Shown: piece by piece, positions 1-3,000 of the stretch
Position numbering within the stretch: the first letter of the stretch is position 1
Layout: every line of letters begins with the position of its first letter
Source: an uncultured Clostridium sp.
GTDB taxonomy: Bacteria; Bacillota; Clostridia; TANB77; CAG-508
NCBI GenBank assembly: GCA_964487865.1
Contig: CAZASP010000001.1
Coordinates: 1 to 35,030, forward strand
Length of the DNA: 35,030 nt
Direction: 5' to 3'
Position numbers: made by a program

Positions 1-3000
1 GTTGCATCTTTCATTAATTGATAAATCATCGTCGCAATAATTTCTAAATGGGCTAGTTCGTCAGTACTTCCACGATGTCAGTGGGAGGTATCTTATGAAT
101 TGTAAATATTTAAAACTAAAATTAAATCATAAATTAGAATGTAAATTAACAAACAAATTAGTAACTTTTAACGATTGTAAAAATTGTATAAATAAAAAAT
201 ATAATAAAACTAAATCAAGTAAATTAGCTAAACTAGAACGTAATAGAACTAGCATATTAACTAACGATTTAAAACATTGTATAATTTGTGGAAAGCCTAA
301 AGATAATCTTCATGAAATATTTTTTGGTAAAAACAGGATTAATTCTATTAAATATAAATTAATTATTCCACTTTGTTTTGATTGCCATATGAAGTTACAT
401 AATGATATCCTCATGCAAAAAGAATGGTTTATTAAAGGTCAAATTAAATTCAATGAAGTTTATCAAGATTTAGATTTTGTTGAAATATTTGGCAAAAATT
501 ATTTATAAATAGTAATAAATAAAATTACTAAAAATAATGCTGTAAAAGCTAAATAGAATAGCAATGGTATCAAAATTTTAGATTCTTTCTTTCTAAATAG
601 AAAATTGGTATAAGTTAAAAAAGTCACACCCAACCATACCATACCAATTATAAATAAAGGTATTAACTCAGCCGATATTTTTTCAATAGCTACAATTGAA
701 GAACTTATAACTGTTATAGAAAGAATTATCGTTATTACAGTTCCACCTAAACCCTCAAATTTATTTTCTAATTCTGAAATTTTATCATCAGTTTTTTCAA
801 CACTTTTAATACTATTATCTGTTTTTTCTGAAATAATATCATTTTGAATTTTTAATATTTGGTTTTGAATACTATAATAATTATGTCTAAGTAAATTAAA
901 TTGACTAGTATTATCAATAACTGCGTTATCAGTAATCAAATATTCTATAAATTTCATATCATTTTCAATATCAATTTGTAATTTTTTCAATAATTGTTGT
1001 TTTTTTATATAATCATTTTGATAATTAATAAAATGGAGTTGTTTAAGGATTTTTTTTGTTTGTTCTAACCAACTGGCTAAATTATCATAAATTGGTTTTT
1101 TATAATTTGTATCGCTACTACTTTCTAATATTTTATCTAAGTTTTTACTTGTATTATTTTTACTAGTTTTCACTTGTTAAAAATTTTTCCTTAAACCATT
1201 TTTTTGTTTCAATTTTTGAAATAGTAGCATTACAATTTTTCTTTGTTTTATACCATGGTGAACCTGGCATATGTGTTATCTTAATTAAATCTGAAGTGTT
1301 TACATCTCCAAAAATATCATATACATCATCTATACTATTAGTAATAGTATCATCTAGCTTTGGCAAATTATCAGAAAATTCATATATTGGCAAATCCATA
1401 TAACACTTATATTCAGTATATACTTTTTGGCACAAAGGTCCATAAGTCCACGCATTAAAATCTTCTTTATATAGCCTATTTTTATCATAACTAGCCATAT
1501 AATAAGCTTCAATAAAATACAATAATTTTTGTAATTTTAATTGAGTTATTTCTTTATTTTCATTATTAAATTTACAAATCAAAATTTTAGCAACATCAAG
1601 AATATTCACCCCATTATCCATAATTACACTCCCTATTTTAATTCTATGATAACATGAATTGACACAATATACTAGCATATTTTTAATTTTTTGGCAATAT
1701 TTTTTTATCATTTTACAATCCTCTTCTATGTAATATACACATATTTTTTTGTATTTTTCTAAATTATATCAATGATTTTTAAAAAAAATGTCGAAAAAAA
1801 ATAATGTAAATAAAAAAATAGGTAAATATGATTAACATATCTACCTATTTTATCAATTCCTTATGTGTTGCCTTTCCAACGTGTCCATCGACGGATAAAC
1901 CTTTATCTTTTTGAAATTTTTTAACTGCTGATAGTGTGTCATTTCCAAAAGACCCGTCAACTCCAGCTTTTCCGCAAGAGTATCCCAATTCAATTAGTCT
2001 TGATTGCAACCATTTAATGTGGTTGGTTGCTCTTTTTTTTAAGTAATATAAGTAGTTGTTATGACTAGCACTTTCAGTTTTTGGTCCAAATGAACCGTCA
2101 ATAACTAGACCACATTTATAGTCTGCATTAAGTGCTTTTTGTAAAGATTTTACTCTTTCTTCTCTTGTAGATGTTTTAGGCTTTATATAATGGACATCTC
2201 CGATAGCTGGATTTACTATACAACCTCTAAAACTATAAGCACTACCTTGACCCCAACGACCATTATTATTAGTTCTCAAAGTATTCCAAAAAGCACTTGA
2301 GCCATATCCTGATTCTGATGAATAAAATTGATTCACACTATCAATTCTCTCGACAACCGCTAGGTGTCCAGCTCCATCACCACCATTTAAAGTTTTTCCT
2401 TTTTGCCAAACCATGATACCTCCTAGAGTCGGATAATTGACTACTTTCAAACCTAAACTTTTAGCTCTTTCAATAAAGTTTTCAGCATTACAATTCAAAG
2501 TAGGATATTTCATACTTCCTATGATTTCATTAAATCTACTGCAAGCATACCCAACGCAATTTGCTAGTACATTTCTACCAGCACAAGTAGGACTTCCTTG
2601 AATACATCTGCTCCATCCTCCATTAGATGTTGTATTGTAAAATTTGTTCCCATACTCAGGTAAACTAGTTCTCATTTGCATCTGTAACTACCTCCTCTTG
2701 ATGTTCAATTGTACAATCATCAATTAAATCTTCTAAATCATCATTATTAAATGTTGTTTGAATATCTTTTTTCATTTCTTTATCACCTCTTCTTAATTTT
2801 CTTTATTAACCTTTGTTCCTAAAAAGAACGAAACTATCATTATTGTTATCTGCTTCAATTCCTCTGGAATTGGTATTCTTAATAATATACAATAGGCGAA
2901 CAATGCCATTATCACTACAGTTATGAAACTCTTTAAATCACTCCACGCCTTTTTCATCTCTCTCATTCTCCTCTAATATAACCTTTTCACATAATCTTTT

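Follow-up and report, generated by a model that had tools for sequence, protein, structure and literature searches.

A candidate PanA-PanT toxin-antitoxin cassette behind the lysis genes of a phage contig from an uncultured Clostridium

The Panacea protein and its membrane partner

The contig CAZASP010000001.1 from an uncultured Clostridium sp. (assembly GCA_964487865.1), referred to over its entire length as the window, comprises 35,030 bp of phage DNA with a GC content of 28.5% and carries nearly all of its genes on the minus strand. Close to one end, behind the endolysin gene, two overlapping open reading frames (ORFs) form a cassette (499..1711, GC content 22.3%) that encodes a stand-alone protein of the Panacea (DUF4065) family, here termed PanA, and a membrane protein of 224 amino acids (aa). 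Panacea, or PanA, obtained its name in a study that validated nine PanA-PanT (PanAT) pairs, of which three contained membrane toxins (Kurata et al., 2022, PNAS 119:e2102212119; PMC8832971). On the basis of sequence comparisons, we consider it probable that the cassette of the window is a two-gene type II toxin-antitoxin system of this kind, which would be carried as an accessory ('moron') module behind the lysis genes of the phage. The features of the locus are listed in Table 1.

Table 1. Features of the cassette and of its surroundings in the window.
Feature	Position	Strand	Basis or remark
PanA, stand-alone Panacea (DUF4065) protein, candidate antitoxin	1163..1711	-	PF13274, phrog_1281
Overlap of PanA stop (TAG) and PanT-like start (GTG), putative translational-coupling junction	1163..1173	-	11 nt
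PanT-like N-terminal helical domain, cytoplasmic (aa 1-138)	760..1173	-	fast-evolving; LRHxYY at aa 95-100
PanT-like membrane domain (aa 139-224), three transmembrane (TM) helices	499..759	-	hydropathy
Extended -10-like element TGATATAAT, candidate cassette promoter	1763..1771	-	read directly
Intrinsic terminator, closes endolysin/late transcript, upstream cassette boundary	1815..1851	-	16-bp stem, 5-nt loop, U-run
Endolysin, CHAP and 2x PG_binding_1	1845..2681	-	profile matches
Two small TM-protein ORFs	2938..3243, 2793..2966	-	upstream of endolysin; holin candidates
HNH/DUF968-like gene	95..508	+	phrog_7566 E=5e-15; Cys/His motif CIICG...CFDCH

The first gene of the cassette is clearly assigned. 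Its product scores 52.3 bits (E=1.3e-13) against the Pfam profile PF13274 (SocA_Panacea), which has a gathering cut-off of 25.7, aligns to positions 1-113 of the 113 positions of this profile and also matches phrog_1281 with E=4.8e-35. The core motif from which an earlier note on this DNA had recognized a Panacea domain is present, and with a profile match above threshold this assignment is confirmed. The protein contains no helix-turn-helix (HTH), PAD1 or other neutralisation domain, and a search of PDB sequences yielded no match. Two starts are available to the gene, an ATG at 1711 behind the ribosome binding site (RBS) AGAGGA, which defines a protein of 182 aa, and an ATG at 1621 behind the RBS GGGAG, which defines a protein of 152 aa. 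Both contexts, RBS and ATG, are kept in three lineages and only the short form is found in the others. The intervening Cys-containing N-terminal extension of about 30 codons (1621..1711) contains indels of 21, 9 and 3 nt, all in frame, and has retained an open reading frame. Judged from this pattern, the gene may make two isoforms. As a side observation, residues ~17-67 of PanA weakly match the C-terminal region of DarG, both in NCBIfam (NF048014, E=0.054) and among the defence models of PADLOC-DB v2 (PDLC02990, E=0.007), where this is the sole, weak match of PanA and where the membrane protein has none. The similarity hints that Panacea may be distantly akin to that part of DarG which binds DarT.

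In the type VI system SocAB from Caulobacter crescentus, the toxin SocB binds DnaN and has SocA as its ClpXP adaptor. SocA, the founding member of the Panacea-domain proteins (as cited by Kurata et al., 2022), shares the Panacea/DUF4065 fold family with PanA of the window, and latter aligns to the NCBIfam model NF047745 (SocA_antitoxin) with E=3.6e-21 and 75.6 bits. By analogy, the Panacea protein could serve as a proteolytic adaptor that passes its toxin to a housekeeping protease. We regard this as highly improbable, since the score does not come near the cut-off of 190 set for the equivalog, which implies that PanA shares the domain without being an orthologue of SocA, since SocB is unrelated to the partner in the window, a membrane protein, and since all five PanAT pairs that were tested formed stable complexes, as expected for type II behaviour (PMC8832971).

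The second gene starts within the first, and the 11-nt overlap described in the earlier note was recovered at the same position. Homologues also begin at the position of the GTG at 1173, mostly with ATG but also with TTG, behind a GGA/GAGG Shine-Dalgarno sequence located within the 3' end of PanA, and this coincidence supports the assigned start. Hydropathy analysis of the 224-aa protein defines hydrophobic segments at residues ~143-163, 171-191 and 200-222, and a basic loop between the second and third segment (RKKESK) fits a topology with the N-terminus inside. An AlphaFold2 model calculated from an alignment of 84 sequences is all-helical, with a predicted local distance difference test score (pLDDT) of 88.4 and a predicted template modelling score (pTM) of 0.65. 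It places helices at residues 26-50, 55-81 and 90-165, with TM2 and TM3 encompassing residues 168-193 and 201-223. The N-terminal part is thus predicted to fold into a helical bundle, the last helix of which continues unbroken into TM1. The protein shows no significant similarity to any family in Pfam, PHROGs, PADLOC or NCBIfam, it has no match to PDB sequences, and three Foldseek runs, two of them on the PDB and one on BFVD, produced no match with an E-value below 0.09. Hydropathy, model and library searches therefore agree with the earlier description of a helical N-terminal part of about 140 aa followed by three hydrophobic helices, without resemblance to a known family. We propose that the N-terminal domain is a PanA-binding or regulatory region and that the membrane domain is the effector, acting as pore or depolariser.

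Among the structural matches, resemblances to the stalk-plus-TM arrangement of CorA/Mrs2 and to the Habc domain of syntaxin were set aside, as their best Foldseek E-values (0.09-0.24) are not significant. In CorA/Mrs2 Mg2+ channels, TM1 is the continuation of a long stalk helix located in the cytoplasm, as in the model of the window protein. In contrast to these channels, latter has three instead of two TM helices, no GMN motif and a much smaller N-terminal domain, and the best match reaches E=0.24 with template modelling scores of 0.2-0.37. We thus treat the similarity as an analogy of fold, which is a lead towards the formation of oligomeric channels and not evidence for it.

Conservation of the pair and mobility of the cassette

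Word-indexed searches for relatives of the membrane protein returned 5, then 20 and then 46 sequences, and a HMMER scan of 1.84 billion representatives identified 114 clusters (at 50% identity) with E<=1e-3, 50 of them with E<=1e-10. Full-length members are nearly all 220-280 aa long and combine a soluble helical N-terminus of ~140-170 aa with three C-terminal TM helices, and the three-TM C-terminus is kept throughout the 114 clusters. The two parts differ in conservation: relative to the window protein, identity amounts to 38-71% in the membrane domain vs 22-44% in the N-terminal domain, where the motif LRHxYY marks the closer relatives. Within TM1, positions 152, 154 and 158 are occupied by small residues in all 84 aligned family members, and further small residues at positions 145, 148 and 162 share one helical face with them. 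The family is rare and almost wholly uncultured: its named members are confined to proteins from metagenomes or metagenome-assembled genomes (MAGs) labelled 'Bacilli bacterium', 'Firmicutes bacterium' or 'uncultured Clostridium sp.', the sequences closely related to that of the window all originate from uncultured metagenomic phages or MAGs, and existing annotations read 'hypothetical'. In tblastn searches the window protein found no match in GenBank phages or in PLSDB plasmids, and its relative P0131 none in phages. IMG/VR contains two loci of the family.

The association of the membrane protein with PanA is strict. In all 27 loci first fetched (individual loci carry L numbers), PanA is located directly upstream and overlaps its partner by 4, 11 or 14 nt, and the same layout, with overlaps of 14-17 nt, recurs in three more distant lineages (L079-L084), whose partner is 17-18% identical to the window protein. 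In total, the arrangement is found in all 33 fetched loci that encode a full-length partner, from 12 lineages, at identities down to 17% and with overlaps of 4-17 nt (4 nt in L011; 11 nt in L001, L005, L019 and L020; 14 nt in L014, L069, L073 and L083; 17 nt in L079 and L081). PanA genes of related cassettes are 49-67% identical to that of the window. The pairwise identities of PanA and of its partner correlate across the 12 lineages (r=0.89, Mantel p=1e-4), which indicates that the pair is inherited as a unit. The co-conservation in related elements, on which the earlier note had made its proposal depend, is thus established. Near-identical loci, compared in a dN/dS-style test, exhibit 0-2 differences, all of them synonymous.

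The same pattern emerges from the side of PanA. A profile scan of the species genomes detected four close PanA genes (57, 52, 40 and 35% identity), each with the partner downstream. PanA genes at 36% identity or less are accompanied by unrelated partners or by none, as expected for a domain that swaps partners. Unrelated small partners are found next to PanA in prophages of H. cinaedi, in Flavonifractor phage Chenonceau and in Blautia phage Montmirail, all of them from GenBank. Kurata et al. had defined PanAT systems in silico by a distance of no more than 100 nt between both genes, by occurrence in at least two genomes and by flanks that are not conserved. In the family described here, the genes overlap in numerous loci, the flanking endolysins and integrases differ, and the sequence identity between two prophages with unrelated endolysins (L069 and L071) starts at the end of the endolysin gene. 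Their additional requirement of reciprocity finds its counterpart in the observation that every homologue with enough upstream DNA adjoins PanA. Mere adjacency by chance, or one of the two ORFs not being a real gene, is effectively refuted by these data: besides the general caveat that lists of ORFs are mechanical, nothing speaks for it, and it would have to account for 224 open codons in DNA of 22% GC, for homologues at 17-60% identity with preserved architecture and for complete adjacency combined with co-divergence.

In one locus of an uncultured Bacilli MAG from rabbit (L018, 2439..3185), behind a PanA of 52% identity, the partner is frameshifted, with an N-terminal domain that stops and the full TM region in the +1 frame. 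Either the toxin has become a pseudogene in this copy or the assembly is faulty.

With respect to its surroundings, the cassette is found directly behind the endolysin in most lineages, always separated from it by a spacer of 130-400 nt. The preceding endolysin is of five types, CHAP in the window and Peptidase_M15_3, Amidase_2, GH25 or Peptidase_C39_2 in relatives. In the relatives, an integrase usually comes next after the cassette, which belongs to the serine type in some lineages and to the tyrosine type in others. A direct indication of mobility is provided by the prophages L069 (~3150..5050) and L071, which have unrelated endolysins and yet share a 100% identical block composed of the upstream spacer, PanA and the partner. 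The block starts where the endolysin genes end and stops after the partner, and thus describes a mobile cassette that brings along its own upstream region. It is followed by a ~90% identical gene coding for an HTH_3 protein of 80 aa, possibly a third, regulatory component that is absent from the window. The cassette is also encountered at other sites. In bajarodcaudo virus 4 (PQ006095.1, 10370..11600; L073, 3001..4231), a distant version resides among tail genes. Its PanA ORF, 41.5% identical to PanA of the window, was left unannotated in GenBank and is overlapped by a partner of 255 aa with three TM helices (XHH63587.1). This version has a high compositional bias and matches the broad profile of alignment A4 but not A2. 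In L081, no lysin is adjacent to the cassette. On a 132-kb contig of a Bacilli MAG (L011), a restriction-like gene of 543 aa (10477..12108; Mrr_cat/NA-iREase1) is located ~1.7 kb past the cassette, which may there border a defence-rich spot.

Transcription, lysis genes and phage context

In the window, the cassette is separated from the late operon by the terminator of the endolysin transcript, which folds with a dG of -19 kcal/mol and a z-score of -6.0, a stability equalled by none of 200 shuffled sequences. Terminator-like sites number 5 in the sequence, compared to 0.6 expected. The insulation claimed in the earlier note is therefore confirmed, with the terminator placed at 1851..1815 on the minus strand. 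The following spacer of ~130 nt up to PanA holds the element TGATATAAT, and a TATAAT is kept at the homologous position in the 67%-identical relative L005. Sigma-70-like promoter matches are barely enriched in the AT-rich window (34 found compared to 26.1+/-4.6 expected) and, for this reason, the presence of a cassette promoter at this element is no more than plausible. Of the claim that the cassette owns an extended -10 promoter, the element itself is thus retained, whereas its function is less certain. At its other end, the cassette converges with the HNH/DUF968-like gene, the sole sizeable gene on the plus strand. The 3' ends of this gene and of the 224-aa ORF overlap by 10 nt (499..508), which leaves no space for a terminator between them.

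The position of the cassette immediately after the endolysin in most lineages examined could imply that the pair belongs to the lysis system, with the three-TM protein acting as holin, antiholin or XhlA-like factor that is gated by Panacea, for instance in order to set the moment of lysis. Holins are themselves depolarising membrane proteins, and two of 84 family members match Pfam PF10779 (XhlA, best E=7.7e-8), which describes proteins with a coiled-coil and a TM segment from lysis cassettes of the PBSX type. Still, we find a role in lysis very unlikely. The strong terminator and the spacer set the cassette apart from the lysin and outside of the lysis transcription unit, two candidates for the holin are already available upstream of the lysin, and the window protein itself matches neither holins nor XhlA. 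Moreover, the cassette moves separately, the copy in bajarodcaudo virus 4 resides among tail genes, the one in L081 has no neighbouring lysin, and a validated pair from the published PanT cluster T4, described below, is chromosomal and listed as 'NotPhage'.

The earlier note had placed the pair towards the end of a prophage. The order of lysin, PanAT and integrase in relatives is in line with this assignment, whereas in the window neither integrase nor repressor was found among 20 ORFs scanned in the early and middle regions, a scan that did not extend to the structural region. Joining the two ends of the contig (1..94 and 34900..35030) generates an ORF of 45 aa (MQQSCLEKIRL...KDF) across the junction, and for this reason the contig may be circular or a complete genome; alternatively it may be short of a lysogeny module of ~3 kb. 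A blastn search of positions 1-4000 of the window against INPHARED returned zero matches. A Mollicute-like alternative genetic code was ruled out, as TGA serves as stop codon in 9 of 41 long ORFs.

Other genes of the window include an ORF of 206 aa in the head and packaging region (24469..25089, minus strand), which matches a head-maturation-protease PHROG (E=2e-9) and also phrog_3895, annotated as 'ADP-ribosyltransferase exoenzyme toxin' (E=7.7e-7). Located in the early region are genes for a ParB_N+DUF4417 protein (E=1.7e-80), for a small protein resembling sigma-70 region 4 and for two distinct members of the SSB family (coordinates for this set: 26528..27580, 27868..28275, 31733..32206 and 34591..34887, minus strand), together with ERF at 33605..34219 and a PD-(D/E)XK nuclease at 32681..33301.

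Relation to described systems and proposed function

The closest counterpart in the literature is T4, a large cluster of PanT toxins described by Kurata et al. (2022; PMC8832971). In the T4 entries of Dataset S1 that we compared, PanA precedes PanT throughout, many of the pairs have short overlaps, with -11 as recurrent value, and the CDD 'hits' of the toxins belong to coiled-coil and transporter families that commonly turn up as spurious matches. The hosts in these entries are mostly Clostridia, Tissierellia, Negativicutes and Erysipelotrichia, in addition to Campylobacterales and Fusobacterium, and some members are borne by prophages. The validated T4 pair from Helicobacter sp. 13S00482-2 (PanA WP_095295401.1, PanT WP_095295403.1) overlaps by 11 nt, and its toxin, which contains a coiled-coil-like N-terminus and C-terminal TM helices, depolarises the membrane without permeabilising it for SYTOX. 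By this published description, the pair of the window agrees with the T4 entries in gene order, in the -11 overlap and in the combination of a helical N-terminus with C-terminal TM helices, and one T4 toxin with a CDD match to 'MIT_CorA-like' parallels the non-significant Foldseek matches of the window protein to CorA. The setting is different, as relatives of the window pair occupy a fixed lysin-proximal site and the Helicobacter pair, according to its entry, resides on the chromosome. None of 30 family members looked up, nearly all of them metagenomic proteins, is found among the T4 entries compared, the named WP_305084651.1 and MDY6072345.1 included. Since a published cluster already exhibits similar order, overlaps and architecture, the pair in the window looks like a further example of the systems described by Kurata et al. 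and not like the first of another kind: it would add to them a member or, at most, a sub-family of toxins. The term 'previously uncharacterised' used in the earlier note for the membrane protein was therefore too strong, as this cluster includes a validated member that depolarises membranes.

Other systems are related in part. The pairs of clusters T3 and T12 from E. coli STEC O31 and Bartonella apis (B. choladocola PanT D11) likewise oppose PanA to a membrane-depolarising toxin. Their toxins are short peptides with charged N-terminus that form large SYTOX-permeable pores, unlike the window protein with its helical domain of ~140 aa and three TM helices. RosmerTA (RmrT D5, Gordonia phage Kita) is similarly a phage-encoded two-gene module whose effector carries C-terminal membrane segments, and depolarisation as well as defence against other phages have been demonstrated for it (Ernits et al., 2023; PMC10440598). 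In contrast to the window pair, its antitoxin is of the ImmA/HTH type instead of Panacea, and we found no sequence relation between the two. The same study has established by mutagenesis that a stand-alone Panacea domain can neutralise a TM toxin via the segment preceding the TM region, and it has proposed a sensory role for Panacea.

In the mechanism that we propose for the cassette, transcription would proceed independently, downstream of the endolysin terminator. PanA would be translated first and translation of the membrane protein, whose GTG start is weak, would be coupled to it via the overlap of 11 nt, an arrangement from which an excess of antitoxin is expected. PanA would then keep the membrane protein inactive by binding to its cytoplasmic N-terminal part or close to the membrane, to its juxtamembrane part. 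Upon loss or triggering of PanA, the three-TM domain would self-associate via the face of small residues on TM1, leading to depolarisation of the membrane and to a stop of growth. Candidate triggers are the loss of the element, the shut-off of host expression by an infecting phage or a cue sensed by Panacea, and candidate benefits are abortive infection, superinfection exclusion or the retention of the cassette or prophage. The interpretation as toxin-antitoxin or abortive-infection module offered in the earlier note thus stands as a candidate, carried by the profile match and the co-conservation of both genes. Toxicity and neutralisation by direct binding, the formation of an oligomeric pore, a trigger and a benefit in defence, such as abortive infection, or in stabilising the element are inferred. 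A role in defence is a tentative proposition, closer to doubtful than to probable.

Several observations weigh against a toxin-antitoxin cassette. With no DNA-binding domain in PanA, classical autoregulation is not evident, and the call of a cassette promoter is weak, with matches near the level of chance in AT-rich DNA. The absence of lysogeny genes among the ORFs scanned in the window leaves expression from a prophage unproven for this phage. The near-constant place behind the endolysin could also mean a function linked to lysis, and the putative toxin, taken over its whole length, is less conserved than PanA. Finally, a T4 member from a C. difficile prophage is, by its entry in Dataset S1, 'not toxic' in E. 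coli (PMC8832971).

Latter finding also bears on the question of whether the membrane protein is a toxin at all. It could instead be a lysogenic-conversion or superinfection-exclusion protein or an anchored sensor, with Panacea as its cytoplasmic regulator or partner and no arrest of growth. The interval between lysin and integrase is a classic site of lysogenic-conversion genes in phages of Firmicutes, and this is where the cassettes of the relatives are placed. The sensory role suggested by Ernits et al. (PMC10440598) would also fit. On balance we judge such a function to be unlikely: those Panacea proteins paired with TM proteins that were tested are antitoxins of membrane-depolarising toxins, the tight overlap with the antitoxin placed first is a signature of toxin-antitoxin systems, and the library searches revealed no similarity to known exclusion proteins.

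We thus retain the type II PanA-PanT cassette as the preferred interpretation. A more far-reaching version of it, in which the membrane proteins would constitute a distinct, uncurated family of PanA-gated channels that is not homologous to T4, joins a cytoplasmic domain of three helices via an unbroken stalk helix to the three-TM domain, assembles via the invariant face of small residues on TM1 into CorA-style oligomers, travels as a sharply delimited mobile cassette at the lysin-integrase junction of gut Firmicute phages and is switched by a Panacea domain sensing an incoming phage to cause abortive infection or superinfection exclusion, appears distinctly unlikely to us.

The cassette reveals no new principle, and its value lies in an uncurated family, a confident model of the monomer and a mobile unit of two genes. 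If confirmed, it would add a well-delimited phage-borne family of ~114 clusters at 50% identity to the PanA-PanT repertoire, documented as a discrete travelling cassette at the lysin-integrase junction in temperate phages whose hosts are uncultured Bacilli and Clostridia from the gut. Neither Pfam nor PHROGs, NCBIfam or PADLOC contains the family, and the annotation of phages and prophages would therefore benefit from a profile derived from alignment A4. The pair would also offer a tractable system to investigate how a stand-alone Panacea domain restrains a multi-pass membrane toxin and what signal releases it.

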